A stretch of 64,000 nucleotides of DNA from Nitrosopumilaceae archaeon (GCA_965207375.1 OZ242274.1:160001-224000), one strand, 5' to 3'; shown: positions 12,957 to 49,628, numbered from the stretch's first letter. Notes: a model not told the origin generated them from the sequence alone. Numbers and translations: made by a program.

Positions 12957-13030
12957 GGGTCTATAGCGCAGCCAGGTAGCGCACTGGCCTTTTAAGCCAG
13001 CTGTCGTGGGTCCGAATCCCACTAGACCCG
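12957..13030 (+). tRNA. tRNA-Lys(TTT); integration target
   Basis: GGGTCTA...CTGGC-CT-TTT-AA-GCCAG...GTGGG TCCGAAT CCCAC TAGACCC G cloverleaf. Confidence 0.93.
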
Positions 13031-13033
13031 CTT
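13014..13033 (+). repeat. attL core (tRNA-Lys 3' end)
   Basis: Identical to 49609-49628. Confidence 0.9.
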
Positions 13034-13073
13034 CATTTTTGACATTTAATTAGGACACGCACGAAATCTAGGC

Positions 13074-14393
13074 GTGCCAATACGACTAGACCAAAGCGAT
13101 ATTATACAGACAACAGATGATGCATTAGCATTGTTTAGTACCGGCATCAAGACCAAGGCAACAAAACAAACCTACGAAAAACGCCTCAAAGAGTTTCTGT
13201 GCGGTACTTTGGAAAATTATCTTGATGGTGATTCAGAACTGCGAGACAGGCAAAAAAAGGAACGCTTGGCCGAAGGCAGCAATGCAGAAATTGGCAAGAC
13301 TTTGGATGCAGATTTTTCAGCCAGAGCCAGTGAATTGGTAAAAAAGGCAAAAGATGACCCAGATGCAGTGATGGGTCTACTGCTTGCATATTCTTCAAAA
13401 TTAAAGGAAAGATGCGACAAGCCTGCTGAAGATCCAGATCATCTCAATCCTAATACCGTACCTAATATGTTCAAGCCAATAAAGAAACTGTTCAAAATGA
13501 ATGGTGTTCATTTTCAATGGGAACGAATTGATTCCACATACCCCGAGTCTGAGACCAATCGTGACACTAGGGGATATACGCGAGAAGAAATTACCTCTAT
13601 TCTAGGATTTGCCAATCCACTTGAAAAGGCTGCCATATACCTTGCATCCTCATCTGGTATGAGGCGAGGTGGATTTGATTTTACCTGGGACTGCATCAAA
13701 CCTGTGTACAAAAAGGATAATGATTATTTCATGGGAAATTATGATGATAATGAAACTACTGGTGTTGTGTGTGGTGTGGTTACCGTGTATGCAGGCTCTA
13801 ATGAGCAATATTTCGCAATGTTTACACCAGAGGCATGGAAGGCAATCTGTGTGTATAGAACCCAATGGCACTCTGATACATTGCAGCATCCAAAACCCAA
13901 GGATGGATTCCTAAAGCGCGCAGGTGCTCAGATAAAATTGCTCAGCTGTGATGCATTGGCAACCAGGCTCAACAAAGTACTCAAAAAAGCAAAGGTCAGA
14001 GGACCACTTGAGGCAGGCAAAAGAAACCACGAGGTGCCAATCATGAATGGATTCAGAAGATACTTTAACAAAATCAACAAGGAGACCTTTTCAAGAGATT
14101 CTCCCCTGGCATCGTTGATAAAAAAGGAGATGATGCTTAGTCATACAGGCCTGCTAAAACTTGACAAGAATTACTTTCAAACACACTGGAAGGAGCTAGT
14201 CGAAGAGTATCTGGGTGCAGTTCCTGCACTGACTGTTTCCTCGGAACAAAGAGCAAAGGCAGAAAACCAGAAATTACGTGTAGAAAAATCCGAACTTGAG
14301 GACAAGAACCAGCAGCTACAGGCCATGAAGGAAGAGATAGACAAGATTCGTCAAAGGATGGATATTGCAGATAGGTTTGACAAGAAGGCATAA
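13074..14393 (+). CDS. int: Tyrosine recombinase / integrase
   Basis: SSGMRRG (R), NGFRR (HxxR-like), LSHTG, DKNYF (Y); starts 43 bp after the tRNA. Confidence 0.88.
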   Translation: MPIRLDQSDIIQTTDDALALFSTGIKTKATKQTYEKRLKEFLCGTLENYLDGDSELRDRQKKERLAEGSNAEIGKTLDADFSARASELVKKAKDDPDAVMGLLLAYSSKLKERCDKPAEDPDHLNPNTVPNMFKPIKKLFKMNGVHFQWERIDSTYPESETNRDTRGYTREEITSILGFANPLEKAAIYLASSSGMRRGGFDFTWDCIKPVYKKDNDYFMGNYDDNETTGVVCGVVTVYAGSNEQYFAMFTPEAWKAICVYRTQWHSDTLQHPKPKDGFLKRAGAQIKLLSCDALATRLNKVLKKAKVRGPLEAGKRNHEVPIMNGFRRYFNKINKETFSRDSPLASLIKKEMMLSHTGLLKLDKNYFQTHWKELVEEYLGAVPALTVSSEQRAKAENQKLRVEKSELEDKNQQLQAMKEEIDKIRQRMDIADRFDKKA

Positions 14394-14552
14394 CAGTTTT
14401 TTTCTAGATTTTCCAGATAAAATATTTGTATTCTCTATTGTTGGATTGCTTGGTAGGTAGGTGTAATTAAAATTGAGGGAGACAATAAATGGAAAATAAT
14501 AATTTAGTATTTCTCCGAAAGATCAAAATAGAAGTTATTTACACATAAAGTA

Positions 14553-15014
14553 ATGGAGCATTATCTAGATACTATCATTCTAGCCGTTATTGCTATATTT
14601 GCAGGTATTAGTGGTTTAGCTGCATGGTTTACATTTAAAAATACAAAAAAACACTATACCACTCATGAAAAATACATTTCATCTCAAATAATAATGCAAA
14701 TATTAAAGATGACAGAAAACTACTATGAGATAAATAATAAGATACTAGAAAAGGATATTAAAGAATATGAAACCGATGATGATTTGGAGCCATACATGAA
14801 TCATCTAGAAGGTCTTGGAAGATATTACCGTGATGGGCTTGTAACATATGAACATGTAGAAAACGACTTTGTTGAATTGCTTATAAAAATAAAAAAAGAC
14901 AACCTCCTTGAGCATTGCTTTGGAGATAAAATAAAATTAAACACTAGACGATTTGAAAATGTAAAATATCTTATTGCAAAGATTACTCCACCTAATGATT
15001 CCAAAAAAGAATAG
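14553..15014 (+). CDS. Single-pass membrane hypothetical protein (DUF4760-like)
   Basis: N-terminal TM helix; YMNHLEGLG...DGLV pattern. Confidence 0.65.
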   Translation: MEHYLDTIILAVIAIFAGISGLAAWFTFKNTKKHYTTHEKYISSQIIMQILKMTENYYEINNKILEKDIKEYETDDDLEPYMNHLEGLGRYYRDGLVTYEHVENDFVELLIKIKKDNLLEHCFGDKIKLNTRRFENVKYLIAKITPPNDSKKE

Positions 15015-15284
15015 AATCAAAATACATACTAAGTCATTGTAACTTCATAATAATGGGATTTGCTAGTCTGAATCGTTTTTAGGTTTGCCACGTTTTCCTG
15101 TGGATGTATGATCTACTGTTGTTGCAGGAGTGCTAGGTTTTTTTCTTTTTTTCTTGGGTTTTTCGTCAGTCATAAAAAAACCCAACATGGCACTCTAATA
15201 AAATGATCCTTTAATCCAGCTAAACGAAATGTGATCCTAATTCTACCTGCGATAATGAAATTTTGTGTCTAAATCATCACAGAA

Positions 15285-15902
15285 TCATTCTAATTGAATT
15301 ATTGATAACAAATCAAAAAATAATATGATAGCCCCAAGTAAAATGCCTAGCACCACATAGATTGCTATGCTTCCTGCAATACTGATTGCTATGCTTTTTG
15401 CAATACTATATACTCTATTTTTTGCTTTGATTTTAAATGCAAAATCTTGTGTAGCGTACACTTTACCATTTTTGTAATTAATCCACACACCAACCCCGAT
15501 CTGGTTGTAATTGCCTAATATGTTGAAGCGATGTCCGGCACTTTTCATCCACATCTTGACTAATTCTGAAGCCAAGGATCTTTCATTTTTGGATCTGGCA
15601 TGATGCTTGACGCCTTTACTAATGGTAAAGTGCGTATCTGTCCAAGTATATGCAATGTTTTCACCTATGCCCATATCCAAACCTGCCTTATCTGCCCTAT
15701 CTGTCGGTTCGTCTAAACTACCTAAAGTCTTATGACTATAATATTTTCTTCTTGCCATGTCTCTAGAATGATTGCGAGCGATTCTGCCTATTGAGCGTGA
15801 CCATGCTAGTTGATTTAGCCTATGTTTTCGTCTCTCTCTGTTTGTAATTTCAAATATGTGCCGTTCTATTTTTGACACTGACAACTTTCGATTGAATATC
15901 AA
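15285..15902 (-). CDS. CAP/SCP domain protein with C-terminal membrane anchor
   Basis: TNRERR, ARNHSRDMA..YYSH, GENIA, WMKSAGHRFNIL, ATQDF. Confidence 0.88.
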   Translation of the reverse strand: MIFNRKLSVSKIERHIFEITNRERRKHRLNQLAWSRSIGRIARNHSRDMARRKYYSHKTLGSLDEPTDRADKAGLDMGIGENIAYTWTDTHFTISKGVKHHARSKNERSLASELVKMWMKSAGHRFNILGNYNQIGVGVWINYKNGKVYATQDFAFKIKAKNRVYSIAKSIAISIAGSIAIYVVLGILLGAIILFFDLLSIIQLE

Positions 15903-16085
15903 GTCATAAAATGTGGGATTTTCTCAAATAAGTAGTTAAACAGCTAAACAAAATGTGTGCAAAATAGGCCAAAATCTACCGCAAAATGCAAAGAGAACAA
16001 CAGGTGCAGGTTAAGAATTTGGGTCACATTTCGCTTAGCTGAAGGATGTAAAAAACATATTAACGCAAAAAACCTAGATGAACAA

Positions 16086-16629: not shown

Positions 16630-16857
16630 TTATTCATACTGCATATTTTGATATGTGGAATCACCAATTCTTTGAATTTCTCCTGATTTGTTCAGTGAGT
16701 ATATTGCACTACGAATCCTATGTTTTATCTCGTTTTCTTTGATGTAAACATCTGGATGATTCACAAGTGCCTCATACAATTCTGAAAGCGTAACCTGTTT
16801 TTTATCCCGTATTACTTCCCGAACAATTCGAATCAGAGAAATGCGCTTCTGTTTCAT
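16630..16857 (-). CDS. Small winged-helix DNA-binding protein
   Basis: VTLSELYEAL...IRSAIYSL..SGEIQRIGDSTY wHTH pattern. Confidence 0.65.
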   Translation of the reverse strand: MKQKRISLIRIVREVIRDKKQVTLSELYEALVNHPDVYIKENEIKHRIRSAIYSLNKSGEIQRIGDSTYQNMQYE

Positions 16858-16982
16858 TTTTTTACCATATTTACTATTTTATACGTATTATTAGAGATTT
16901 TCTAATCTATATAATAATCCCAAAAAATATGAAATGGGGGTTTCAAACAACCTAGTCTGGATTAGGTCACTCAATTCTGAAA

Positions 16983-17927
16983 TTATTGATGGAAAATAGT
17001 ATGTGAAAACAAACTAGCAGATATTCCTATCAACTGTATATCAAATTTTAAAGATGGCTCTATTCTGGTACGTGCATTATGTATTCTAAATGATATTGTC
17101 CAGCCATTATCAAAAGTTACGATTAAAATATTGTCTTGTTTTCTTTCGGTGTCAATTATCTTTCTTGGCATTTTTAGACGTGAAATTTTGTTTTTGGGTT
17201 TTATATTATTGCAAGGATAATTTAATGTTCCACACATGTTGTAGCCCTGTATTTTGGTACATTCATTATGTTTAATTATCTTGTAAAAGTCATTTTTTCC
17301 TAATAGATATTCAAGTAACAATTTTGGCACTTGGGGATTGTTTGACAAACTACACAATTCTTTTTCAAACGCATCTAGTGTAGGAATATAATATGAAGAT
17401 TCTTTGTTGTCAAGATCACGCCAGTTTTGATTTGGATTCTGTTTGAGTAGTGTTCTTATATCACCAAATATTTTACCTACACTCTTCATGTATTCATTGG
17501 AACAATTAACACCTAGCCATTCCTTCCCAAAATCTATCTTATCTGATAATCTTGAATGCTTAACTGCCGTATGATTGTTCTTTGCAGAAAACCCAATCTC
17601 CCAATTATGTACAGACCTTACCATAATCACATCCCTAACATCACCTTTTGCACCTTGTTGATCAGGCTGTATTGTTATGTGCAATTCGTCATCACTTATA
17701 GAGTGCTCAAGACGTGGTTCAAGATCTGAAATATAATCAACTGCTACACGTGCAGATTTTATGTATAGTTTTTGTTCCGTCAAGGTAAACAAGTCATAGC
17801 AGTTTTGTGCATTATAATATGATGTATTTTTTATGATTGTTATTTTTTGTCCATTATTTAGTTTGTCAAATAATTCAGTACATAGTGCATATTCAAATGC
17901 CTTTCCAGATTGCATTTGATTAGGCAT
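16983..17927 (-). CDS. HaeIII-family type II restriction endonuclease (probable GGCC)
   Basis: GKAFEYA, GDVRD, EIGFSAKNNHTAVKHSRLS, SFRIHNA...SLKFD are typical of the HaeIII family. Confidence 0.85.
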   Translation of the reverse strand: MPNQMQSGKAFEYALCTELFDKLNNGQKITIIKNTSYYNAQNCYDLFTLTEQKLYIKSARVAVDYISDLEPRLEHSISDDELHITIQPDQQGAKGDVRDVIMVRSVHNWEIGFSAKNNHTAVKHSRLSDKIDFGKEWLGVNCSNEYMKSVGKIFGDIRTLLKQNPNQNWRDLDNKESSYYIPTLDAFEKELCSLSNNPQVPKLLLEYLLGKNDFYKIIKHNECTKIQGYNMCGTLNYPCNNIKPKNKISRLKMPRKIIDTERKQDNILIVTFDNGWTISFRIHNARTRIEPSLKFDIQLIGISASLFSHTIFHQ

Positions 17928-17931
17928 TTTA

Positions 17932-18702
17932 TCAATCCAGGTCGTGACTTAAAATCAAAACTTCTCTTGATTTTTTATTATTTGACATTCCGTATTTCCA
18001 TTCAGGATAATGAAAGCGATAACCATCATAAAGAGAGTGGATTTGCTTGCAGTCATTATATGACAAAATCCATCTTTTACGCTTGTGTAGTAGATTAGCC
18101 AGCGCCTCATGATCAAACCCATCATGCATATTGCCTTTATCACCATACAAACGACTTTGTATAAGATATGGTGGATCAAGATACAATAGTTTGCCCCTGT
18201 TTTTTGGGATTGATTTTGTAAAATCAGCATGTGATACTTGTAAGTTTTGAATGCTGAAATTTACAAGTCTTTCAATGGCAGATTGTGTAAAACGTGGATG
18301 GTCTGGCGACATTCCGCCTGATAGTGTGGTGCCTGAAAAAGAACATCTGTTCAGAACATAAAATATTGCCGCTCTTTCATATTTTGAATGATTCTTGTAT
18401 GTCTTTTGAAGTTTATAAAAATCCGGTCTTGACATAGGATAATATTTGGTCACAGCATCTGCTAGTCTCTTTGGGTCCTTCAAAAGACATTGCCAAAATT
18501 CTACAACAGGCTTGAAATTATCATAGCCAATTACCTTAATGCCATTATTTGCACAGAAAAGTTCAACTGAGCCTCCCCCAAAAAAAGGTGAGCAGATAAT
18601 TTTTGTATCTTGAGGTATGAAATTCGATATTTCCAAAACACCTCTTGATTTGCCACCGCAATATCTTAGTGGTGATTTTGAATGCTTTTTAACAACTTGC
18701 AT
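17932..18702 (-). CDS. Dam-like (D12 class) amino-methyltransferase, probably N4-cytosine GGCC
   Basis: PLRYCGGKS, SPFFGGGS and YLDPPY motifs; adjacent to the endonuclease. Confidence 0.85.
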   Translation of the reverse strand: MQVVKKHSKSPLRYCGGKSRGVLEISNFIPQDTKIICSPFFGGGSVELFCANNGIKVIGYDNFKPVVEFWQCLLKDPKRLADAVTKYYPMSRPDFYKLQKTYKNHSKYERAAIFYVLNRCSFSGTTLSGGMSPDHPRFTQSAIERLVNFSIQNLQVSHADFTKSIPKNRGKLLYLDPPYLIQSRLYGDKGNMHDGFDHEALANLLHKRKRWILSYNDCKQIHSLYDGYRFHYPEWKYGMSNNKKSREVLILSHDLD

Positions 18703-18835
18703 CTGCCTTCACCCAATGATTACATTGTGAACAACATGGTATTTTCATTTTTGAGAAAAACTCATGACCGCATTCTTCACATTTTATGACCCGCCTTTTC
18801 TTTAGTTGTTCTGTATATTTTCTAGCTTTGGCCAC
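18689..18835 (-). CDS. 48-aa zinc-ribbon microprotein (not in ORF track)
   Basis: Manual translation MAKARKYTEQLKKRRVIKCEECGHEFFSKMKIPCCSQCNHWVKADASC; overlaps the methylase start; paralog at 36779-36913. Confidence 0.65.
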   Translation of the reverse strand: MAKARKYTEQLKKRRVIKCEECGHEFFSKMKIPCCSQCNHWVKADASC

Positions 18836-18961
18836 ATTTCGATACTAGATGTATACTATTTTAGTGTATATACTATACAAAAGTATACGGTTCATAAATG
18901 CATATACAATAGTATTCAAGAAACCCAAAGCGATCTAGATAAAATTAAAATATCTATTAAC

Positions 18962-20203
18962 ATGGGAGACTTTGTGAGCACCAAAATATCTACCGAAAGA
19001 AAGCAATATTATGACAAACTTCAAAGAACGCTAAAACCGAAGGAGACATACAAAGTTCCATACAAATCTAATACAGAATATACTGCACTTCCAAAATACA
19101 CAATTCCAATTGGTGATTTTCAAACAGGACTCAGATACAATCTGTATAACTCTAGAATATTAAGATCAATAGAGTTTGAAGAGTCTAAAGGTACAAAACT
19201 AGATCCATCAGATGAAGCTACTCAAAAACTAATCGAAGAAATTCTTCTCAATGACAAAAATTATTCTAGTCGTGCACCTGAAAAATTAGCAGAAGATTTA
19301 GACAACAGCGGCCAACAGGAACCTGCGATAATATCATGTGATGGGGTTATTTGGGATGGAAATAGAAGAATAGCTACAAAGAGAAATAAAAAGAGAGAGA
19401 CTGGGGATCCAAAATGGGATACAGTAAAATGTGTATTTCTTCCAGAACTTGATAAAAAACAACTGAAACTATTAGAACATCGCATTCAGATGGCACCAGA
19501 ACTTCGTGAGGATTATGACAGAATAACATTATTTCTTGATTGTAGAAAGAGAATAAGGGAAGATAAATGGACACTTGAGGAACTTGTTAATTCATTCAAA
19601 GATAGGTATACAAAAAAAGAGATTGAGGATTTTATCAAGCAAATTGACATAATAGATGAGTATTTGATACGAATAGGACGACCAAAAAATTATCCAAATA
19701 TTGGTGATAAAGGTGCCGAATTTTTTACCATCATGCAAAAACATATTGAAAAAGAGGACAAGAAATTAGGCACTAATAAGATTGATTTGGCCAAAATAAA
19801 AACGGAATTTTTTGCTGCAGCAGCACACCCTAAATCTACATATCAACATGCTCGAAATCTTGGCAAGATTTTGGCAAAAGAAGATACAAGAAAGACATAT
19901 CTTGCAAATTCCAAGATTTTCAAGGAGCATGCAAAGTACACCGTACCTGATAATGATGGAATTGAAAAAACATTTTTACCTAAATCTACAGATGATGTCA
20001 TTAAAAACATCACATCAACATCTGCTGAGATGAGTGCACGTGAAGTTGATGGACCCGAAACACTTGCAAACAAAGCATTGGACAAGCTTAATGACATCAA
20101 AGAAGAATATATTAAACAGGATGACTCTGATCTACTAAATACACTAAAACAAATTGAGAAACGCATAGTGATATTGAAGAAATACCTAAACGAAGATGTT
20201 TAA
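18962..20203 (+). CDS. ParB/Srx-like N-terminal domain protein
   Basis: GQQEPAIISCDGVIWDGNRR ParB-type motif; first gene of an overlapping operon. Confidence 0.75.
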   Translation: MGDFVSTKISTERKQYYDKLQRTLKPKETYKVPYKSNTEYTALPKYTIPIGDFQTGLRYNLYNSRILRSIEFEESKGTKLDPSDEATQKLIEEILLNDKNYSSRAPEKLAEDLDNSGQQEPAIISCDGVIWDGNRRIATKRNKKRETGDPKWDTVKCVFLPELDKKQLKLLEHRIQMAPELREDYDRITLFLDCRKRIREDKWTLEELVNSFKDRYTKKEIEDFIKQIDIIDEYLIRIGRPKNYPNIGDKGAEFFTIMQKHIEKEDKKLGTNKIDLAKIKTEFFAAAAHPKSTYQHARNLGKILAKEDTRKTYLANSKIFKEHAKYTVPDNDGIEKTFLPKSTDDVIKNITSTSAEMSAREVDGPETLANKALDKLNDIKEEYIKQDDSDLLNTLKQIEKRIVILKKYLNEDV

Positions 20204-24669: not shown

Positions 24670-24675
24670 GTTACC

Positions 24676-25119: not shown

Positions 25120-25124
25120 GCATG

Positions 25125-36999: not shown

Positions 37000-37007
37000 T
37001 ACAAAGT

Positions 37008-37316: not shown

Positions 37317-37317
37317 T

Positions 37318-39097: not shown

Positions 39098-39146
39098 TGG
39101 CTTTAGGCAGGATTGTGAGTTATTAAATCAATCTGTCTGGTTCTTA

Positions 39147-39226
39147 CCTGCATGATATTTCATACATTCACAAATTACGGATATTGACTTTTGATTAGAC
39201 TTGGTATGTTAAAAAATTTGTTGATT
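39147..39226. repeat. 80-bp intergenic direct repeat, copy 1
   Basis: One mismatch versus 40896-40975. Confidence 0.88.
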
Positions 39227-39228
39227 TA

Positions 39229-40530: not shown

Positions 40531-40560
40531 TAGCTACGAACAAATTTCAGGATTATTAAA

Positions 40561-40650
40561 TCAGTCGATCAAATAGCATTCCCACTTTTCATGCATCTTG
40601 AGCAGTTTCTTATCTAGGATATGCTTTTCATGCGTGATACAATATGCCAT
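40561..40650 (-). CDS. 29-aa possible metal-binding micropeptide
   Basis: MAYCITHEKHILDKKLLKMHEKWECYLID; degenerate homolog near 16568-16630. Confidence 0.35.
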   Translation of the reverse strand: MAYCITHEKHILDKKLLKMHEKWECYLID

Positions 40651-40895
40651 GATTATAGTTACTACAAAATGACATAAAAAATTAATGTTTTAGTCTCAAA
40701 TTTGATAATTCTAACTTATCCCATCTTTGACCATATAGTTAACCAGACTGCAAAGCAAAGCATTCCAGCAGTATTTAGTATCATTTGTATTTTTATGGCC
40801 TTGTTTGGGTCTATCATTGTTTTACCTCTAGTTTTAGTTTTGGGCTAACCTGACGATCTATCCTTGGTTCAGAAGGATTGTATGGTTTCTGCTTG

Positions 40896-40975
40896 CCTGC
40901 ATGATATTCCATACATTCACAAATTACGGATATTGACTTTTGATTAGACTTGGTATGTTAAAAAATTTGTTGATT
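40896..40975. repeat. 80-bp intergenic direct repeat, copy 2
   Basis: One mismatch versus 39147-39226. Confidence 0.88.
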
Positions 40976-41510
40976 AGGGATCAACTAGGTCAGGTAACTC
41001 ATTACATACACCATTAGACAAACGGTATGGTTTATCTGTAGGACAATTAGGATCAATGTCCCAATTAAGCCTAAGAGGTTCAGGACTTGTCCAGCAATCG
41101 CCATCAGATCGAAGATATGGATAACCAGCAAAACATCCATCAATTAAAGTAAAATCCTCATGATAAAACATGGCATAATCGTAATAATCTGAACGCTGTG
41201 CAATTGACTCAATTTCTGCCCTTATGTCATAATATTGACTATATGTAGAATGTGTTATAAAATCCACACATGTTTCCTCTGTAATATATTCAGAAAGAGT
41301 TTGAGATTTAATTCCTACTGGACTAAGTGCAAATTCAAAAGGACTTTCATAGGCCAAGTCTGTCATTGTATGCAAAGCCTCAATATGATCCTTGACTTTT
41401 TCTTCACATTCCCAATCGACATGCGAATATGTGTTAATAATAAAACTACTCAAAAATCCTGCACCTGCAATCGCAAAAAGAATGATACTGATTTTAATGG
41501 TTATGTGCAT
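40974..41510 (-). CDS. Secreted/membrane-anchored protein with Cys-containing C-terminal repeats
   Basis: N-terminal hydrophobic segment; CFAGYPYLRSDGDC / CPTDKPYRLSNGVC repeats. Confidence 0.7.
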   Translation of the reverse strand: MHITIKISIILFAIAGAGFLSSFIINTYSHVDWECEEKVKDHIEALHTMTDLAYESPFEFALSPVGIKSQTLSEYITEETCVDFITHSTYSQYYDIRAEIESIAQRSDYYDYAMFYHEDFTLIDGCFAGYPYLRSDGDCWTSPEPLRLNWDIDPNCPTDKPYRLSNGVCNELPDLVDP

Positions 41511-41525
41511 TAGTTAGAACGCTCA

Positions 41526-42569
41526 TTAACAGAAATATTGTTTTTCATTTTCATCATAACAAAAATGTGAACGGACAGAACCATCATCAAAATAAGTTGT
41601 GTGTGTTGTAGGTTTACCGTGTTGATCATACATAGTCATAGCCCACGCATACCTATTTGAAGGACCGTCATAATGTGATTTTTTAGGTTCACATGAACCA
41701 CTGTATGGGTAATAACATTCAGTAGTAGCTTGGCCAGGTTGGTCATAGAATGTATTCTGTTTATATACAGTACCGCCCGTTGTCCATTTGGTAACTGATT
41801 CCCATCTTCCACTTTCATAATACACTATTGTTATAGTAGGTGATTGTGTAGGGTCATGACTGCCCCAATAAGTCGATTTAGATTTTGTTTTACCACTATC
41901 ATAATAGGAATAACAGATCATTCCCCAATCACGAGCGCCGCCTGTAAACTTATCACCGTAAGGGACACATTTTTCATCTGGATTTGGCGGGATCCATTTT
42001 GTTGGTATTTGAACCGTCTGGTTTTTTGATTCAATCTCACTCATTTGAGCCTTCATATTGTTAATCTTGTTATTTTTCCTATCAACTTTCTTTTCTAATT
42101 TTTCAATGGTCTCTTTTTGTTCTGCAATAGTGTTTTTCAATTTGGCAATCTTTTCATTCTTGTTATCCACTTTGGTGTTCTTAGCCTCTAGTTTCTCTTT
42201 TAATTTCTCCAGATAAGATACATCTGAAAAACTGCTATGACTTAGTAAGGGCAATCCTAACATCTTTTCAATCTCGGTCTCAATGTACAAGTGCCTATTT
42301 TCATAGGCTACAAAGTCCAAAATTCCCTCTTTATACTCTAAAGCCAGTTCTGTATATGCTGCCTTTTTGGCCTCATCTGTAGTTAAACCATCAAAATGAT
42401 CTGCATATTGTTGATAAATTGAGTTACGATAAACCTCATCAGAGGCAAAACGATCCCGTTCATTTAATGCAGATTGAAGATTTGCATAATAATCCGTAGT
42501 AGCATAAACTGTGCCTGTTGATATTCCAATTGCCAAAACTACAATAATTGTAATGTGTAAAGTCTTCAC
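41526..42569 (-). CDS. Secreted coiled-coil protein with MORN-variant repeats
   Basis: Same signal peptide family; YYDSGK, YYESGR and YFDDGS repeats. Confidence 0.8.
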   Translation of the reverse strand: MKTLHITIIVVLAIGISTGTVYATTDYYANLQSALNERDRFASDEVYRNSIYQQYADHFDGLTTDEAKKAAYTELALEYKEGILDFVAYENRHLYIETEIEKMLGLPLLSHSSFSDVSYLEKLKEKLEAKNTKVDNKNEKIAKLKNTIAEQKETIEKLEKKVDRKNNKINNMKAQMSEIESKNQTVQIPTKWIPPNPDEKCVPYGDKFTGGARDWGMICYSYYDSGKTKSKSTYWGSHDPTQSPTITIVYYESGRWESVTKWTTGGTVYKQNTFYDQPGQATTECYYPYSGSCEPKKSHYDGPSNRYAWAMTMYDQHGKPTTHTTYFDDGSVRSHFCYDENEKQYFC

Positions 42570-42927: not shown

Positions 42928-43020
42928 AGGCTAAGTCTATACGCTTGGGTCATTTGGGTCCGTAAACCAAAATTCATGGTTAGCAGGGTTATCGTCATCT
43001 GTTTCGACATGCAGTGCAGT
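42928..43020 (-). pseudogene. Orphan 3' fragment of a terminase paralog
   Basis: Encodes ...VETDDDNPANHEFWFTDPNDPSV*; 45 bp identical to 43848-43892. Confidence 0.8.
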
Positions 43021-43160: not shown

Positions 43161-43511
43161 TTGGCACTTGAATTACCTAAATCACCTGATGTTCCTGAAT
43201 TACACCGTGAACCAATTAAACAACAAGCATGGTACTTACAGATTAAAGATGAAATTCCTAACAGTAAAAGACCAATAGATAAAATGTCTATTGCTGAAAT
43301 TTTAGAAATGTATCAAAACAATGACTTTGTTTGTGACGATTGCGGTTCCAAAATGGGAAAAATGAACTGCACATTAAAGGAGCATATTGCACATGTGATT
43401 AATCCTATAGTTCATTGGAGTTGTGAGGACTGTATTATACAAGCCATACGAAATGGTAGAGTAATAGCATCCACTGCAACCACAGACAAATGGAAATTAT
43501 CCAATCGTTGA
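43161..43511 (+). CDS. Zinc-binding hypothetical protein
   Basis: CDDC...CEDC. Confidence 0.6.
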   Translation: MALELPKSPDVPELHREPIKQQAWYLQIKDEIPNSKRPIDKMSIAEILEMYQNNDFVCDDCGSKMGKMNCTLKEHIAHVINPIVHWSCEDCIIQAIRNGRVIASTATTDKWKLSNR

Positions 43512-43555
43512 AATTTTGATCTACGTATATAACGTGTAGATGCAGTGTATGTTAC

Positions 43556-43810
43556 ATGATTGAATATGAAATAACATGTGTCAGAAAAGATGATGAAAAA
43601 ATAACTCATGTGAAATTTGACGACAAAGTTCGTGAGGTTAGAGAAGCAGTTGAAGGGCTGCAGGCTAAAAAATATTCCCTCTACACATACAAAGATAAAC
43701 AAAAAGTATCTGTTGAGCCACAACGGTCAAAAGTAAATGGTACTTGGTTTTTGACCACAGAACCAGACAATACTAAAGAAAACAACTTGGGCTTTTTACC
43801 TAATTGTTAA
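43556..43810 (+). CDS. DUF3892 family protein
   Basis: YEITCVRK...FLTTEPDNTKENNLGFLPNC pattern. Confidence 0.75.
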   Translation: MIEYEITCVRKDDEKITHVKFDDKVREVREAVEGLQAKKYSLYTYKDKQKVSVEPQRSKVNGTWFLTTEPDNTKENNLGFLPNC

Positions 43811-43856
43811 TTTTTTTTCTTTTACATTTGCCAGTCATAAATCAAACAGGCTAAGT

Positions 43857-45413
43857 CTATACGCTTGGGTCATTTGGGTCCGTAAACCAAAACTCGTGAT
43901 TTGCAGGATTATCTTCGTCTGTTTGAACCTTTATCGCTACGGCAAGGAAAACTAGAGACATTAGGAAATCATCATTTCTGTTTGGCATTAAGGAAAAGCG
44001 TAATACTGTATTGCCTCCGGACTTTGTTACTATATGGGATTCCTCTGCCGTTAGATGTTCTATACTCCATTCTGTATCTGCGTTCAATGGTATAGTTATT
44101 TTAGAATTTTGCCAATCCTCAAACCAGGATATTACCTTTTGAACAAAATTGGATTTATCAACTGAAACTTGGTCTTGTTCCTCAATCTTGCTATAGTTTA
44201 TGATATTGGCAGGGTTTTCGCCTAAAGACACTTTGATTACCTTGTTGGCAGATTCTAGGATTTGTAATGCTCCTGTATTTCCTCCTATATCCGCATAGGT
44301 ATAATCAGGTTTGTAATAGTCTATTATCGTTTTTACCTTATCGCCTAGTTCCTGCACGTTTGAATCATTGTACCTGTGGATTGAAACAATTTTGATTTTA
44401 TAATCTTGTTGTTTGATTTGTTCTTCTGTACCTATTACCTGCGCTAATGTAACTACCGTAAAAGCGTCGCCTCCGCTTGCCCAATCAATGCAGGCGTATA
44501 GTTTGGATTCTTCTGATTTTTCTATTTCGGCAGGCTGTAATAATCTTATATCGTCTTTGTAAGATTCTTTTACTAAACTATAAGGCAATGGGATTTTAGC
44601 ACCTACCGAAAATCTTCCCAATACTTCAAAATCAAATTTAGATTGCAGGTAGGTCTTGCGTTTATGCTCTATTTCTTCTTTGGTAATATTGGGCATCATT
44701 AGTTGGTTTATTGCATATCCGTGGTTTATGCCCGTTGGATTTTGGTTTACCCACTGTTTCCCATTCCATTCGGCTTGAGTGGTACTTTGATAATATCTGT
44801 GCCAAGCCGATCCTTCGTATGCTCCGGTTCCTGTGACGATTAGTTTGCCATGTTTAGATTGTGCCATTGCTTCTATAAGGTTGGGCAAACCGTCTAAATC
44901 CGTGTCTTGGCATTCGTCTAAATAGCAAAAGTCCGCGTCTATTGAACGGGCTTGCTTGAACTCCGAATATCCGGATAAAATGTATAATGTTGAGCCATTG
45001 GGAAAGTAATACCTTGAGATAATCTTATCCTTTGTATCTGTCGGTAAGGGGGTTTTATCCAATATATGATTGAGTTTATCCTGTGAAAATATCCTAACCT
45101 TATCAATACTAGAAGTTACGTAAATATGATTAGTATATGGATAAAGTAGGGCATTATGGACTATTTTGGCGATAATATAGGTAGTCATCCCGACCTGCCG
45201 CCCTTTTCGGATTACTATAATTTTTGATTCGTCTTGGCATATATCGTGTAACCATTCCCTACCTTCAAACGAATATTGGCCGTTGCGTAGGGTGATAAAC
45301 TCCTTTAGGAATTTTGTAAAAACCCGTGATATTTCTATTTGATTACCGCTTGCAGGGATTGATTTCTCAATCTCTGATAACAACGGGGTTTGTCGCGTCT
45401 TGATTTTTGCCAT
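43857..45413 (-). CDS. Terminase large subunit-like protein (ATPase + RNase H-like nuclease)
   Basis: Walker A-like KGRQVGMTT, Walker B CYLDE, IDWASGGD and NDDFLMS acidic nuclease motifs. Confidence 0.82.
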   Translation of the reverse strand: MAKIKTRQTPLLSEIEKSIPASGNQIEISRVFTKFLKEFITLRNGQYSFEGREWLHDICQDESKIIVIRKGRQVGMTTYIIAKIVHNALLYPYTNHIYVTSSIDKVRIFSQDKLNHILDKTPLPTDTKDKIISRYYFPNGSTLYILSGYSEFKQARSIDADFCYLDECQDTDLDGLPNLIEAMAQSKHGKLIVTGTGAYEGSAWHRYYQSTTQAEWNGKQWVNQNPTGINHGYAINQLMMPNITKEEIEHKRKTYLQSKFDFEVLGRFSVGAKIPLPYSLVKESYKDDIRLLQPAEIEKSEESKLYACIDWASGGDAFTVVTLAQVIGTEEQIKQQDYKIKIVSIHRYNDSNVQELGDKVKTIIDYYKPDYTYADIGGNTGALQILESANKVIKVSLGENPANIINYSKIEEQDQVSVDKSNFVQKVISWFEDWQNSKITIPLNADTEWSIEHLTAEESHIVTKSGGNTVLRFSLMPNRNDDFLMSLVFLAVAIKVQTDEDNPANHEFWFTDPNDPSV

Positions 45414-45807
45414 TGATCGTATCCCTGAATACCATTAGTAACGGTAATGATTCCATTAAGAATCTTAGTGAATCTTCTGTATTGTTGATTGTGTCTGCTA
45501 TTGCCGCTTTGGTTCTAGGTTGTGGACATTCCCTTAATGTTTCTTCTAGGTGCTGAATCCGTTGTTTCTTCTGCAAAGCCATTGTCCTAATCGTTTCTAA
45601 ATAGCCTGCCTTGGCTTGGTCATTAATCCATTCGTCGTTAGTTTCTCTTAGCCTTTTCAAATATCGATATATGGCATTCCTTGATATTTTCGTACCCTTT
45701 GATCTTAGTATTTTTTGAATCTCTGTAGGGGATAACGTTCCCTGAGTATAAACTACATCCCGCACGGCATTAAATTTTTCAACTGTTGTCTTTCTCATGC
45801 TTGACAT
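45367..45807 (-). CDS. HTH protein, putative terminase small subunit
   Basis: N-terminal HTH (ISRNAIYRYLK) plus helical region; directly upstream of and overlapping terL. Confidence 0.6.
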   Translation of the reverse strand: MSSMRKTTVEKFNAVRDVVYTQGTLSPTEIQKILRSKGTKISRNAIYRYLKRLRETNDEWINDQAKAGYLETIRTMALQKKQRIQHLEETLRECPQPRTKAAIADTINNTEDSLRFLMESLPLLMVFRDTINGKNQDATNPVVIRD

Positions 45808-46059
45808 GATACAATTAATATTGACACGATATATAACAACTAACTTTTGTGTTCCAAAAAGGCATTAATGGTGTTCCAAAAACGATTAAAAATTGTTGAA
45901 AAGTGATAAAAAAAGGTTCAAGGTAGATTGGTAGGCGTATATCCGCGTCCAGACCACAGAATGCCTGTTTGTTGTAGTGTGATGAGGGCTGCAATGTCAG
46001 GGTCAGACGAGATATTGCCAAATTCGTTGAAAAAAGACGGAGCATCATTGGAAATACAT

Positions 46060-47141
46060 AGAGGTGATCCGTAATTATTTTTTATGCGTGCCTACTGCCA
46101 TCCAGATGCCCTGTTTCAGTCAGGCCATCTGATCTAACCGCCACAATATGCTGCGGTTTACCAAACCGCACACAATATCATTGATCCGGTCGTATTTTAT
46201 GAGTGGATTCCTGTATACGTTTCCCATAATACGCCATGTTTTGACCCTGCGTATTGCATGTTCTACATATACACGAATCTTTGAGTGGATTTTGTTGTAT
46301 TCTTTTTGCCCTTCTGTGAGCTTTGCACCCTTTTTCTTTTTGATTGGGGTGCACAGTGTCCCTCCGGGAACCTCAGGTGCCCCTTGGTATCCTCTGTCTG
46401 CATATATGGTGACCTGTGCTTCATCAGGTATTTTCTCTGGAAATGTTGGAGGTTTTTTCTTGTATACTGTAACGTCATGTACTTTTCCGGGTGAATGACG
46501 TGTCTTGTGCACGATTAGTCCATGCGTGTTAGTCGTATATTGTATCTTAGAGGTGTGCGCTCCTGCCTTGCCAGAATAGTGAGATTTTTCCATGTCTTTG
46601 CGTTCGGGCCTTTGTATTTCCTGTTCTGAGGCATCAACAAGACATCTGAGACCTGGAAGAATCTCTTCTAATTCCTCAATGGAGGAAATTCTCTTCATCT
46701 GGTCGTGTATCTTGGTAGGTATTGGAATGCATAGTTTGAGGATGGGCTCTATATGTGTAATAGAGCGCGATACTGATGCTTGTCCTATTTCAAACATGAC
46801 TGCTGCTACATCTTGTGTGCAGTATGTACGATAGTAAAACAAAAGTAGCATCACCTGGTCTCGTACATTTAATGCGAATCTGCGGCCTGCACCTATTGCG
46901 CGCACTCTGTTTTCTCTAGAGAGTCTCTTTTTTTCTGCTCTTGGATACTTTTTTTCCACCTTAGATACTAACAAATCAAATTCTTTGGCAGACATGCCTG
47001 TTATGGCACGAAATCTTCTGGTATTTTTTACCAGTTTTTCATAGGACATCATGAGTTGTGGTAGATTCGGGTGATATTTGGATCTTTTTGGTATTGCTAG
47101 GCGTGAAATTTAGGGAAATTTGCTAATTACGAATCACATCT
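46060..47141 (-). mobile_element. IS5/ISL2-like insertion sequence (1082 bp)
   Basis: TIRs AGAGGTGATCCGTAATTA / AGATGTGATTCGTAATTA; 3-bp TSD CAT. Confidence 0.85.
46120..47052 (-). CDS. DDE transposase (HTH_Tnp_4 + DDE_Tnp_4)
   Basis: FRAITG, VDASEQEIQRP, YSGK, ADRGYQG and RVYVEHAI motifs. Confidence 0.9.
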   Translation of the reverse strand: MMSYEKLVKNTRRFRAITGMSAKEFDLLVSKVEKKYPRAEKKRLSRENRVRAIGAGRRFALNVRDQVMLLLFYYRTYCTQDVAAVMFEIGQASVSRSITHIEPILKLCIPIPTKIHDQMKRISSIEELEEILPGLRCLVDASEQEIQRPERKDMEKSHYSGKAGAHTSKIQYTTNTHGLIVHKTRHSPGKVHDVTVYKKKPPTFPEKIPDEAQVTIYADRGYQGAPEVPGGTLCTPIKKKKGAKLTEGQKEYNKIHSKIRVYVEHAIRRVKTWRIMGNVYRNPLIKYDRINDIVCGLVNRSILWRLDQMA

Positions 47142-47224
47142 CATTATTATCTCTAGTCATAATCGGAAAGCCTAGGTCCAAGGTAGGGAAAAGTCTGGTA
47201 AAAAGGTTCAAAGGCGGCAAAACA

Positions 47225-48127
47225 TTATAGTTTTGCATCGTCTGAGAACAGTGATTCTGCAAACTCTTGTTTAACTGTCTTTTTTGTGGTTTTAATCTTC
47301 TCGAACCTGTCCACTGTAGTTCCGTTAGGCATAGGCTTGGTATAATATCTCAGCATCGTATCATTAAACTCTTCAATCTCCAACTCTACGTCTTTCTTTG
47401 AGAATTTTGTTCGTATCTTGTCGATATGCAGGTGATAGTGATACAATATCCATCTTTTAACGTCAGGCAGTAGATAATGTCCAGACGTAACGGAAAGATG
47501 ATCTGAAATTTTACCCAAAATGACGCATAAACCAAGTATTCCATAATAATCATGAATTATGGGATGACGGCTGTTTGTAATGTGGATTTGGATAGTTTTT
47601 GGATATATGACTGCCTTTACAGGTACATCAAGGTCACTTACCGGTATTTGTATCTGGATGGAACTGTTTTCAGGATGTGGTTCTCTCCCTCTTTCAACTA
47701 GCATCCGGTGCAGATTAGGATCATGGAAGCGTACTGCAATGTCATGAATCTTCAAGGCGTAGCCATGCAAGCCTTCTAGGTATTGATGTAACGGATTAGA
47801 CCCTACCCCCGTGGGCTCATGTGTTACGGGTTTTTGATAATATGGCATGTCAATTCCCTTGAGTTTGTACCAAGTAGGCTTACCTTTTTGCTCGATTTCA
47901 ATATAGTTTATGCATTTATGTACCCTTTGCCTGAATAGAGGGGCAGAATAGCCAAGTTCTTTAAAAACAATGGAGGTAAATGCACACTTTTCTCGCTTGA
48001 CAAAATCATAACAGTGACGCAAAAATTCCCTGTTTTTCTTTGTAAGTTTACCATGTGGGCAACTGTTAAGCCAATCTGTGAATCCAAGTGTTACAAAATC
48101 ATCTGGTTCAGGTCGCTTGGCACTCAA
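47225..48127 (-). CDS. Hypothetical protein, candidate replication/DNA-binding protein of the element
   Basis: 300-aa ORF with wHTH-like N-terminal half; position in the element backbone; function inferred. Confidence 0.55.
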   Translation of the reverse strand: MSAKRPEPDDFVTLGFTDWLNSCPHGKLTKKNREFLRHCYDFVKREKCAFTSIVFKELGYSAPLFRQRVHKCINYIEIEQKGKPTWYKLKGIDMPYYQKPVTHEPTGVGSNPLHQYLEGLHGYALKIHDIAVRFHDPNLHRMLVERGREPHPENSSIQIQIPVSDLDVPVKAVIYPKTIQIHITNSRHPIIHDYYGILGLCVILGKISDHLSVTSGHYLLPDVKRWILYHYHLHIDKIRTKFSKKDVELEIEEFNDTMLRYYTKPMPNGTTVDRFEKIKTTKKTVKQEFAESLFSDDAKL

Positions 48128-48202
48128 TTTAGAAAACCTCGCTTTTGAAAAATTTGAAGATGTTTAGAATACTATAGGAATGGTTGTTTTGTGTAGCGCA
48201 GA

Positions 48203-48352
48203 TCATGATAACTTAACCTCTGTAATTACGTGGCGTAATGGGTTATCTGCATAACATTTCTTACATAGTTCGAGTTCGTAATTGCCTCCAGACCCACCGT
48301 CTAGAATAACCTTGACAAATTTTTTTGTTTTGCACTTACAATGGTAATTCAA
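48203..48352 (-). CDS. 49-aa zinc-binding microprotein
   Basis: MNYHCKCKTKKFVKVILDGGSGGNYELELCKKCYADNPLRHVITEVKLS; GGAGG upstream. Confidence 0.45.
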   Translation of the reverse strand: MNYHCKCKTKKFVKVILDGGSGGNYELELCKKCYADNPLRHVITEVKLS

Positions 48353-48480
48353 TGTTTTTGTGCCTCCCAACATTCAAGTAATCGAAGTAGAATCTGTTCA
48401 AAACTATCGCCTTTTGCACCTAACAGAGCGATCTTGTCTTTGGTTTCTTTTGATAAAGACATTGTAGTAATTTTTGCCAT
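48349..48480 (-). pseudogene. Small RHH/antitoxin-like DNA-binding protein, frameshifted in an A-run
   Basis: Frame ...LLSKETKDKIALLGAKGDSFEQILLRLLECWEAQKH is out of phase with the ATG at 48480 by one A. Confidence 0.4.
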
Positions 48481-48508
48481 ATGGATAATTACACGAATTA
48501 ATCATATA

Positions 48509-48528
48509 TAGTGTAGTGAACTACACTA
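48509..48528. promoter_or_regulatory. Perfect palindromic operator-like site
   Basis: TAGTGTAGT-GA-ACTACACTA between divergent genes, 4 bp before the ATG at 48533. Confidence 0.6.
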
Positions 48529-48532
48529 GTGT

Positions 48533-49327
48533 ATGATCAATAGACGAAAAATAATAAGAGATAATTATGGTAAAGAAAAAAACCCCAAGGAATTGATAAC
48601 AAGTTTTCTTGGACGTAATGAAAAGATGACATTTGGAGAAATAAAAAAAGAATTAAAGAACATGGACATCAGTTATGCAGACAATAAAGGATTGGATCTA
48701 GTTCTAAAGGCATTGATTGAAGACCATGTAATCAAAAAGCGTCCAGCAAAACCGTATCCACTATACTATCTGACCAACAAAGCAATCACAAACATTGACT
48801 GGATTGCAGATGAGTTTAAGCGAGAAATAGCAGGTAGGATTCTAAATCACCCTCATCAGCCAATGCTTATAACAGAAACAGAAGAGAGTCATAAAATACG
48901 AGACTTGATTCTGATTTATGGAGTGTACATGATGTATGTTCAGATTCAAAGCTGGAATATCGTAAATCCAAAGAAGAGTTCAAAATACAATCATGATGCT
49001 AGACGCTCATGGTTCATACATACAATTCTACATAACAACGAATCGCTCTTATTTGAAAAGATGATTACTAGGCTTTGTAATTGGGGTTTGGATCTTAGCG
49101 ATGAGGAATATGATGAGAAGAGGGCAATGATATATGAAAGTAAGAAGAAATTAAAAAAATTCAAAGAGATAGAAAAGACTTTCAAATTACAATACAAGCC
49201 ATATTATGATTTTTTTGATAAAGTGTACCAAAAGGCTCCAAAAGGTGCTAGAGGAGCACGAGACTGGATAAAAGAAATGCAAAGAAAAGAACGCACAAAG
49301 AAAAGACGTGAAGGTAAAAGGAAATAA
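48533..49327 (+). CDS. Winged-helix transcriptional regulator-like protein
   Basis: MTFGEIKKEL...LDLVLKALIEDHVIKK...YYLT wHTH. Confidence 0.65.
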   Translation: MINRRKIIRDNYGKEKNPKELITSFLGRNEKMTFGEIKKELKNMDISYADNKGLDLVLKALIEDHVIKKRPAKPYPLYYLTNKAITNIDWIADEFKREIAGRILNHPHQPMLITETEESHKIRDLILIYGVYMMYVQIQSWNIVNPKKSSKYNHDARRSWFIHTILHNNESLLFEKMITRLCNWGLDLSDEEYDEKRAMIYESKKKLKKFKEIEKTFKLQYKPYYDFFDKVYQKAPKGARGARDWIKEMQRKERTKKRREGKRK

Positions 49328-49608
49328 TATTGTAGATATGTATTAGATACTATACGTTATTGAATAATCTCAAATCTTATGATTCTAGACTAGACCAGAA
49401 ATAGGTATTTGGTACTTGTTCACGTAATCGAGTTAATTTGTGGCCAGATTGTGATGTAATGATTGACAAATTAGGTACGAGGTGAACAAGTACACTATTC
49501 TTTTTACATTTGTATTGACACAAGACCTAGACTCTACTAGGCGTGAATCTGAGCCATATCTGACTAAAATCCTCCCTTTTACCCCAAGACACACTTCATT
49601 TTTGACAG

Positions 49609-49628
49609 GAATCCCACTAGACCCGCTT
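49609..49628 (+). repeat. attR core
   Basis: GAATCCCACTAGACCCGCTT, identical to the tRNA-Lys 3' end. Confidence 0.9.

Follow-up and report, generated by a model that had tools for sequence, protein, structure and literature searches.

A tRNA-Lys integrated element of a Nitrosopumilaceae archaeon with an intact large terminase, no recognised capsid gene and a large surface and defence cargo

Introduction

Why would an integrated element without a recognisable capsid gene carry a packaging terminase? The question is raised by a 36.6-kb element at a tRNA-Lys gene of a Nitrosopumilaceae archaeon, found in a 64,000-nt stretch of its assembly (GCA_965207375.1, OZ242274.1:160001-224000). This whole stretch is called the window, and positions are counted from its first letter; the genome is referred to as G000, its chromosome as C1, and other genomes by similar handles. 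Ammonia-oxidising archaea play a central part in nitrogen cycling, and little is known of the mobile elements that they carry. A preliminary description proposed two readings: a satellite-like element able to package itself in the virions of a helper, or a provirus stripped of its morphogenesis genes and then refilled with cargo. Our computational analysis supports this in part, and both readings are weighed below. We favour, at just short of an even chance, the reading that the element is a cryptic mosaic like NitKor-E1 and inherited its terminase as a module, the present use of which is uncertain.

NitKor-E1 was described in a survey of thaumarchaeal elements. According to that work (Krupovic et al., 2019; PMC6563490), NitKor-E1 of Ca. 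Nitrosopumilus koreensis AR1 encodes an integrase, small and large terminase subunits (TerS and TerL), VapBC and a restriction endonuclease (REase), with no other Caudovirales gene. It is one of five TerL matches in thaumarchaea; its terminase was judged "enigmatic but likely a relic", and it was classed as a cryptic integrated element. A figure legend in the same paper places a surface-layer (S-layer) protein gene on a thaumarchaeal cryptic element. Both this kind of element and S-layer genes on such elements are thus already published. NitKor-E1 was found named in PMC6563490 alone in the full-text literature.

Boundaries and integrase of the element

The 20-mer GAATCCCACTAGACCCGCTT occurs in exactly two copies in the window (13014-13033 and 49609-49628). 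No third copy was found there when up to 3 mismatches were allowed, and two matches were reached in 0 of 100 shuffled sequences. The left copy is formed by the final 18 nt of the tRNA-Lys gene plus 2 nt, and the element unit, measured start to start between the repeats, is 36,595 bp. Both copies of the perfect 20-bp attachment (att) repeat of the preliminary description were thus located. A tandem array of two elements was considered and ruled out by the single integrase gene and the absence of an internal att-like copy (≤3 mismatches). The 14-mer CTTCATTTTTGACA stands immediately after the left core and has a second copy (49594-49607) immediately before the right core. In a circular form the two copies would stand on either side of the core, and they may be putative integrase binding sites.

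The integrase gene (Table 1) starts 41 nt after attL. The open reading frame (ORF) itself gave no match in Pfam, PHROGs or NCBIfam. Its 222 homologues include several that NCBI names integrase (Nitrosopumilales and Nitrosotalea records), and 6 of 22 aligned members of the family matched PF00589 (best E 1.8e-5). R197, R328/R329, H357 and Y367 are invariant in the 22-sequence alignment. Foldseek comparison of the AlphaFold2 model (mean pLDDT 79) with the PDB gave tyrosine recombinases only among the matches listed, with XerA (5hxy, E 1.2e-4) at the top and XerH, Tn1549 Int, Cre, lambda Int and XerD further down. A sequence search of the PDB gave one chance-level match (E 0.67), and the family profile gave none. 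The predicted fold and the retained R..R..H..Y residues confirm the intact-looking integrase gene noticed earlier as one for a divergent tyrosine recombinase. Paralogues of the integrase were seen at G000:C1:151291-152376 (27% identity, ∼8 kb left of the window) and at C1:1354070-1355238 (41% identity), and other elements with this integrase family may be present on C1.

The left flank of the element carries genes for NADH dehydrogenase and acetyl/propionyl-CoA carboxylase, and the right flank an aminotransferase gene, repeats and more variable DNA. In a complete genome of another genus (G005), tRNA-Lys is found 222 bp from the top homologue (55% identity) of the right-flank aminotransferase; this homologue has the opposite orientation, and synteny ends beyond it. 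The locus is rearranged in same-genus genomes. Genome G001 carries an integrase fragment (31% identity, residues 21-177) immediately 3' of its own tRNA-Lys. The comparison with relatives for an empty site is suggestive of insertion, not clean. Right of attR we observed a 0.8-0.9-kb repeat (49893-50790) with three more copies on C1 (79-85% identity), and a block of unknown genes (52127-57529) with a ParB_N protein and an IS66 transposase, so the right flank is variable DNA too.

Logan contigs of sequencing runs were compared with window positions 6000-25000. Run X1 contained a 19.7-kb contig that is identical to the flank and stops at position 13051, 18 nt beyond the core. Contigs of X1 identical to 14364-23964 had depth figures of ∼70-74 vs. 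203 for the flank contig, and run X3 repeated the pattern (29.8 for the flank vs. 6-13), such contig depths not being equal to cell shares. Two integrase-gene contigs of X1 differ from the window at 5/249 and 10/242 positions (2-4%), with depths of 137-155. These data give a hint of several versions of an integrase-bearing element at the tRNA-Lys site in the sampled population. Positions 16778-23751 had no cover in runs X4 and X5, which counts as evidence neither way.

The terminase operon

TerL of the element is the only terminase in the assembly. It was identified by profile matches to phrog_675 (2.9e-51), phrog_2 (3.1e-22) and Terminase_6N (3.5e-7), and tblastn found terminases of Rossellomorea phage phiT1 (26%, 1e-40), Bacillus phages and Haloarcula virus HHTV-1. 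A PDB sequence search with TerL returned nothing. The closest relatives, at 35-78% identity, form 16 protein clusters and come from metagenome contigs of 2-43 kb. Compared with its 13 closest homologues, TerL departs at 2 of the 65 columns that are invariant among them. The homologues' own departures range from 0 to 20 (0-4 at 50-73% identity; 12 and 20 in the two most distant). A 24-sequence set, which takes in the unpublished genome G294, gave 0 departures of TerL in 32 columns. Among the invariant residues that TerL keeps are K70/R72/Q73, D161/D166/E167, T196/G197, D310, D375 and D482; by their motif patterns we take them to be the Walker A, Walker B, coupling motif and nuclease Asp residues. 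Relaxed selection on TerL, which the preliminary description had raised as a point that would tell against its proposal, left no sign in either comparison.

The upstream 146-aa ORF shares 47 nt with the start of TerL. Its N-terminus gave a weak helix-turn-helix (HTH) profile match, and it has two homologues (49-54% identity), one of them on a 19,816-nt contig, the length also of the contig that carries one TerL homologue. By position and architecture only, we tentatively call it TerS-like. The complex prediction for TerL and this ORF scored 0.27 against a mark of 0.32, so the score gives no verdict. Of the TerS/TerL-like genes noticed earlier, TerL is therefore identified by its profiles, and TerS by position, the weak HTH match and a homologue.

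These properties bear on a rival explanation: after excision, the element's own TerS and TerL would pump its DNA into the capsids of a co-infecting head-tailed thaumarchaeal virus. We consider this less likely than a cryptic element. The intact TerL with conserved motifs and the overlapping TerS-like ORF with its homologues favour it, as do the intact integrase, the perfect att repeats and the 14-mers flanking the core. The flank contig of run X1 that ends 18 nt past the core, together with the variant integrase contigs, fits several element versions at one site and so points the same way. Four contigs of the nearest TerL homologues, known by size, measure 37.5-39.2 kb, near the 36.6 kb of the element, which we take as a lead only.

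Two more genes precede the TerS-like ORF in the operon. The 300-aa ORF belongs to a family of 135 cluster representatives, and Pfam scans of 47 members gave no informative family. Its model (pLDDT 80.5) has an N-terminal winged helix (1q1h, Z 7.9) and a predicted domain like TATA-binding protein (TBP) (Foldseek E 1.5e-3; VIA Z 6.6-6.8 over 132-140 residues). Both tools point to the same probable fold, with scores in the middle range. Homologues of this ORF and of the 56-aa ORF (48203-48373, minus strand) lie upstream of TerL in genome G254. The 159-bp gap (48374-48532) between the divergent 56-aa and 264-aa genes contains a near-perfect palindrome, TAGTGTAGTGAACTACACTA, which may be an operator. 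The "divergent regulator switch" proposed previously thus keeps its gap, palindrome and divergent genes, with neither gene supported as a regulator by any HMM.

Gene families looked for in the element

ORFs of the element were scanned against Pfam (35 ORFs), PHROGs (34) and NCBIfam (31). Capsid, portal, protease and tail families were absent from all three scans of the element ORFs. MCM, primase, Rep and Orc1 families were absent from the profile scans of the 35 ORFs, and VirB4, VirD4 and other conjugation ATPases from the Pfam and NCBIfam scans of the same 35. These results agree with the earlier impression that no capsid, portal, tail, primase/MCM or VirB4 gene could be recognised. Weak PHROG rows for "major head" and "tape measure" fall on coiled-coil parts of the secreted proteins. 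Pfam models Phage_capsid, Phage_portal (PF04860) and SPP1_portal (PF05133) had no match across the 4.3-Mb assembly. Packaging into borrowed capsids is disfavoured by these findings, since no replication module was found in the profile scans of the element ORFs and the assembly yielded no helper virus and no capsid or portal family.

Could the element be a complete virus whose structural proteins escape all profiles? In genome G222, 11 co-directional ORFs that follow a related TerL have no Pfam or PHROG match above noise, and thaumarchaeal structural proteins can thus escape profiles. In the present element, however, all ORFs of at least 350 aa are assigned (integrase, ParB-like, SNF2, S-layer, two coiled-coil secreted proteins and TerL), so no unassigned ORF of portal size remains. 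Downstream of TerL, the ORFs encode secreted coiled-coil proteins, and these have paralogues on the chromosome. The HK97 capsid fold was not among the structure matches of the 300-aa ORF model. Blastp of the window ORFs against the ORFs of relatives matched only TerL, the 300-aa and 56-aa ORFs, the CAP-domain protein, the S-layer C-terminus and the insertion sequence (IS). We regard an unrecognised virus as very improbable.

Scars and cargo

The IS lies between the 300-aa gene and the TerS-like ORF. It is 95-98% identical to full copies on C1, and at least seven near-identical chromosomal copies were found. That an IS splits TerS-TerL from the upstream genes of the operon is a further point against self-packaging into helper heads. 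A second scar is found at the other end of the operon: a 77-bp repeat with sharp edges copies the final 22 codons of TerL plus 9 nt, and the two copies (42928-43004 and 43848-43924) bracket an 843-bp insert. A portal gene normally follows TerL, and the insert occupies exactly that place. Three families of ∼100-bp repeats resembling miniature inverted-repeat transposable elements (MITE) are present (15941-16043; 34827-34929 and 36222-36324; 49781-49880), with 58, 17 and 38 blastn matches, respectively, all of them on C1. The IS, the MITE-like repeats and the TerL duplicate mark accretion and recombination. The Mrr gene and the two identical MITE-like copies around it (34827-34929 and 36222-36324) resemble a composite unit.

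Surface and secreted genes take up ∼16 kb, or ∼44% of the element. The S-layer protein homologue matched PDB 8c8k_A ("cell surface protein") in four stretches (E = 0, 1750 bits), the best of which aligns residues 1973-2948 to 714-1733 of 8c8k_A; the entry code 8C8K appears in a 2024 Nature paper on the S-layer of N. maritimus. The gene is one of five such loci on C1, and its four paralogues are 54-71% identical over long stretches. Lys-rich genes also adjoin two other S-layer paralogues (C1 ∼1,209,262-1,210,205 and ∼2,057,317-2,058,461), and YYQKNKEK-type proteins accompany three of the five paralogues altogether. The coiled-coil proteins have signal-peptide-like N-termini and related copies elsewhere on C1. 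The full S-layer gene and the secreted paralogs of the preliminary description were both recovered. Overall, identity to chromosomal paralogues is 24-90% for the S-layer, Lys-rich and coiled-coil genes, and the GC content of the S-layer segment is 0.40-0.43 vs. 0.33-0.36 in the flanking parts of the element. That the element remodels the host envelope is something we only infer.

The idea that a former provirus was refilled with cargo gains from the chromosomal paralogues of the cargo, the IS, the MITE-like repeats and the 77-bp TerL duplicate. The CAP-domain protein has a 28%-identical homologue near TerL in G222. In genome G157 (C14, 2788-4602) we observed a 604-aa protein with 39% identity to the window S-layer protein over the C-terminal 515 aa of the latter; its gene lies ∼1 kb downstream of TerL, with two short ORFs between. 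S-layer-like genes may recur next to terminase genes.

Defence genes make up another ∼8.1 kb (∼22% of the element), and the "several defence loci" reported before were found as a HaeIII-type REase, a D12-class methyltransferase (MTase), Mrr and a cluster of SNF2, NOV_C and ParB-like genes. The HaeIII-family REase was matched by Pfam (5e-96) and PADLOC (9e-100), and its partner in the pair (16983-18702 for both genes) is a D12-class (N6A/N4C-type) MTase, not a C5 methyltransferase. The SNF2 helicase is ZorD/DpdE-like (ZorD-like match 1e-23), the NOV_C protein is PD-T4-1-like (7.7e-16), and a 465-aa ORF is ParB-like by Atlas features (0.97). Mrr was matched by PADLOC mREase_IV (3.8e-62).

Table 1. 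Features of the integrated element and its insertion site (window positions)
Feature	Position	Strand	Basis or remark
tRNA-Lys(TTT), integration target	12957..13031	+	ARAGORN
attL core, 20 bp (tRNA 3' end + 2 nt)	13014..13033	+	
14-mer CTTCATTTTTGACA, immediately after left core	13031..13044	+	2 matches vs. 0.08 expected
Divergent tyrosine recombinase (integrase), 439 aa	13074..14393	+	Family alignment, PF00589 in members, predicted fold
CAP/YkwD-domain protein, C-terminal hydrophobic tail	15285..15902	-	
MITE-like repeat, ∼100 bp	15941..16043		58 blastn matches on C1
Type II restriction-modification unit: small winged-HTH ORF, HaeIII-family REase (16983-17927), D12-class MTase (17932-18702)	16630..18702	-	Pfam, PADLOC
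Four-gene defence-like operon: ParB-like, SNF2 helicase, NOV_C/PD-T4-1-like nuclease domain protein, Cys-rich 279-aa protein	18806..23927	+	
Three Lys-rich repeat proteins, YYQKNKEK-type, 45-nt period	24010..25745	-	
S-layer protein homologue, 2949 aa, extra fn3, Ig-like and ANF_receptor domains	25790..34639	-	
Mrr type IV restriction gene (35079-35969, -) between two identical 103-bp MITE-like repeats	34827..36324		
Three secreted coiled-coil paralogues (488, 433, 347 aa) and 178-aa Cys-rich protein	37631..42569	-	
77-bp duplicate of TerL 3' end	42928..43004	-	70/77 identical
Insert genes: Zn-ribbon protein (116 aa), DUF3892 protein (84 aa)	43161..43810	+	
Large terminase subunit TerL, 518 aa, intact	43857..45413	-	phrog_675, Terminase_6N
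TerS-like ORF, 146 aa (N-terminal HTH, rest helical)	45367..45807	-	Position and architecture
IS element (DDE_Tnp_4 transposase 46120-47052), ∼1.09 kb	46056..47147	-	
Predicted winged-helix and TBP-like DNA-binding protein (300 aa) and 56-aa Zn-ribbon ORF	47225..48373	-	Structure model
264-aa protein of unknown family, divergent from terminase operon	48533..49327	+	
attR core (49609-49628) with second 14-mer copy (49594-49607)	49594..49628	+	

TerL relatives in Nitrosopumilaceae

A search with the window TerL found matches at E ≤1e-5 in 30 of 223 genomes from its own family and in 0 of 177 genomes from other families of the class. A second draw of 400 family genomes gave matches at ≤1e-30 in 23, of which 20 came from a single genus represented by 63 genomes; these tallies take in three unpublished genomes (G244, G294 and G337). 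The genome-borne TerLs are only 25-35% identical to the window TerL, and no TerL above 35% identity was found in the 400 family genomes except the window's own. They form a second group, of which the nine closest are 45-77% identical to each other and G222 stands at 33-41%. Viral contigs gave no relative with the single TerL as query and only 21%-identical matches with the alignment as query. A search of metagenome contigs for a close TerL relative found none, and one of genome contigs found one irrelevant Streptomyces stretch. The recurrence of this distantly related TerL clade in Nitrosopumilaceae is new here. The dN/dS values of the genome-borne TerLs (0.07-0.17) were calculated and set aside, with dS saturated in nearly all pairs; they are not used as evidence of present function because they mostly reflect evolution before integration.

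We then counted host-like ORFs around TerL, defined by ≥40% identity across ≥70% of their length to the G000 chromosome outside the island, a crude yardstick that also picks up some toxin-antitoxin, IS and S-layer paralogues. The count covered 20 loci and left out G294. Host-like genes bound TerL on both sides in 11 of the 20, with gaps of 3.65-13.9 kb (G237, G338, G254, G157, G376, G121, G520, G563, G250, G564 and G535), and on one side in another five. Four loci (G222, G532, G547 and G543) have no host-like gene within 4.3-20 kb of sequence and may be viruses or proviruses. Among the 11 bounded TerLs, eight are full length (499-534 aa) and three are truncated or split (G121, G564 and G535), which indicates that decay of such copies happens. 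The three broken copies in this related clade are a point against a present packaging use of the terminase.

All-vs-all blastp of the ORFs of 11 relatives' loci and the window left TerL as the sole real family present in more than three genomes, the other such cluster being a shadow ORF inside TerL. A backbone of integrase and terminase genes with variable cargo had been suggested as a check on related genomes; capsid-less TerS-TerL loci do recur in them. That such loci are common in the family favours the satellite explanation, in particular the compact locus of G237 with an integrase and an MCM helicase. This 11.6-kb interval (C23, ∼61.6-73.1 kb) is bounded by FEN1 on one side and a host dehydrogenase gene on the other and contains, in order from FEN1, integrase, a 341-aa ORF, MCM helicase, a 114-aa ORF, a TerS-like ORF, TerL, a 140-aa ORF and a type IIG restriction-modification gene. 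An att repeat and a tRNA were looked for at the G237 element and none was found.

The G376 locus (C46, 2977-7878) lacks an integrase. There we observed amoA, a 115-aa ORF, a TerS-like ORF (196 aa), an intact TerL (534 aa) and an Rpb7-like gene, so that the terminase pair occupies a 3.65-kb gap between amoA and the gene for an Rpb7-like RNA polymerase subunit. In G254 the EPSP synthase gene comes immediately after TerL. In two genomes of one genus, G165 and G376, TerL has the same Na/H exchanger gene as its neighbour, with 51% identity for TerL and 84% for the exchanger; this would fit repeated insertion or fast change at that spot.

Orphan terminase pairs that lie between core genes without any integrase, of which G376 is an example, raise the explanation that the pair is kept as an interference device which cuts or mis-packages the concatemers of invading head-tailed viruses. 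The window element is otherwise rich in defence genes, and the divergence of TerL at the G165/G376 spot fits a fast turnover. The same pattern, however, would arise just as well if different elements had inserted there repeatedly, and no PADLOC model matched the TerS-like ORF in a scan that took in this ORF and not TerL. We consider such a device quite improbable. The survey makes it plain that NitKor-E1, the "enigmatic" case of 2019, is not isolated, and G237, G376 and the window element are concrete loci at which the terminase question can be put to the test.

Comparison with described elements

Gene content as described, not sequence, was used to liken the window element to NitKor-E1 (PMC6563490). 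The two share a host family, a tyrosine integrase, TerS directly upstream of TerL and an REase. They differ in that the window element sits in tRNA-Lys, carries an S-layer cassette, an SNF2/ParB-like cluster, a HaeIII-type restriction-modification unit and Mrr, and has no VapBC that we could see. With an integrase, TerS-TerL and no other gene of a head-tailed virus, the window element appears NitKor-E1-like by gene content. The same paper gives, for thaumarchaeal cryptic elements, a median att length of 17 bp, insertion in the 3' part of a tRNA gene in 39 of 68 and sizes of up to 98 kb. The window element resembles them in its short att (20 bp), its tRNA 3' insertion and its restriction-modification cargo. 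Most of them carry MCM, Orc1, primpol or Rep; none of these genes was found in the window element.

The head-tailed proviruses or gene transfer agent (GTA)-like loci Nvie-Pro1, NCAV2-Pro1 and CalSub-Pro share a TerL of the head-tailed type with the window element (PMC6563490). As described there, they keep portal, protease-major capsid protein (MCP) and tail genes and mostly lack att, whereas the window element shows the reverse and has an integrase in addition. In terms of what defines a head-tailed provirus, the large terminase is present in the window element and the portal was not found. Conjugation ATPases, which would define an integrative-conjugative element, were not found in it.

Bacterial phage satellites are typically ∼10-20 kb long and have a replication module and helper-sensing regulators, and TerS is present in many phage-inducible chromosomal islands (PICIs). 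To our knowledge, TerL without capsid genes is unusual among them. The window element is like the bacterial satellites (PICI, capsid-forming PICI (cf-PICI), P4 and PICI-like elements (PLE)) in having an integrase, no full virion module and packaging genes of its own, a combination that would make it depend on a helper. It is unlike them in its size of 36.6 kb, its archaeal host and the lack of a known helper. Put in terms of what marks a satellite, it has a TerS-like ORF and TerL without a capsid family, and no replication module of its own was found. The element is much larger and more cargo-laden than the satellites described, which weighs against a satellite nature.

Nor has a satellite of a head-tailed virus been described in archaea, as judged from a recent preprint (bioRxiv 10.1101/2025.02.15.638363). 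Apart from pSSVi and pSSVx, it names no earlier archaeal satellite, and it adds satellites of spindle-shaped viruses. What pSSVi, pSSVx and the haloarchaeal SRCEs have in common with the satellite explanation considered here is an archaeal host and the presumed borrowing of a helper virion. As presented there, they ride spindle-shaped viruses and carry an AAA+ ATPase and/or MCP, not a terminase.

Origin and possible use of the terminase

The boundaries, the integrase fold, the intact TerL, the scars and the identity and paralogy of the cargo are established by the data. On this basis, a mosaic cryptic element of the NitKor-E1 type could have arisen in the following way, in which viral descent, the sequence of events and whatever activity the terminase has today are all conditional. 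The tyrosine recombinase would have inserted the element into the 3' end of tRNA-Lys across the 20-bp core, with regeneration of the tRNA end. Its sole virus-derived module would be the terminase operon, composed of the 56-aa Zn-ribbon ORF, the 300-aa DNA-binding protein, the TerS-like ORF and TerL. This operon probably came from a head-tailed virus ancestor, and the morphogenesis genes after TerL would have been lost or replaced. Three restriction or defence units, the S-layer cassette, secreted-protein genes of host families, the IS and the MITE-like repeats may have accreted later. If the element still moves, it would do so by integrase-mediated excision and integration, and it would build no virion itself. 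What the host probably gains from the cargo is defence of the restriction type and an alternative coat for its surface. The scars beside and inside the terminase operon, the host-family cargo, the lack of a replication gene and the three broken TerLs among the 11 bounded ones speak for a relic.

Several points weigh against a relic. No sign of relaxed constraint was seen in TerL, and TerS and TerL are intact and overlapped despite the IS upstream and the recombination at the last 22 codons, which looks like retention. Capsid-less terminase loci recur (G237 and G376; 8 of the 11 island TerLs are full length). The perfect att repeats and the intact integrase argue that the element is not old and dead. 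In addition, a very divergent small structural protein may hide among the ORFs of 264, 279, 178 and 153 aa, which were not folded.

Capsid-less integrative elements with an intact TerS-TerL pair may be a real and recurrent class in Nitrosopumilaceae, of which the window island would be a large member that packages itself into helper heads; taken as a whole, we find this proposition doubtful. If it is true, these would be the first tailed-virus satellites in Archaea, and the window island would also carry defence systems and an alternative S-layer gene from one ammonia oxidiser to another. Functional lone terminase pairs would mean an unrecognised transfer of tens of kilobases of DNA in borrowed virus heads, including restriction systems and variants of the S-layer, the outer coat and ammonium-concentrating surface of these cells. 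If the pairs are relics, the window element is an ordinary cryptic element with an interesting cargo. Some explanation other than the four considered here takes up the remaining probability.

Other contigs of the assembly

We also looked at the three further contigs of G000. C2, C3 and C4 (0.43, 0.78 and 0.93 Mb; GC 0.367-0.369) carry no ribosomal protein L2 gene and have 1, 4 and 9 tRNAs, respectively, vs. 46 on C1. They showed no megablast similarity to C1, and 14-22% of their bases lie in ORFs of at least 100 aa vs. 84% on C1. By these measures they resemble non-archaeal DNA, perhaps of eukaryotic origin, that was filed together with the archaeal chromosome.

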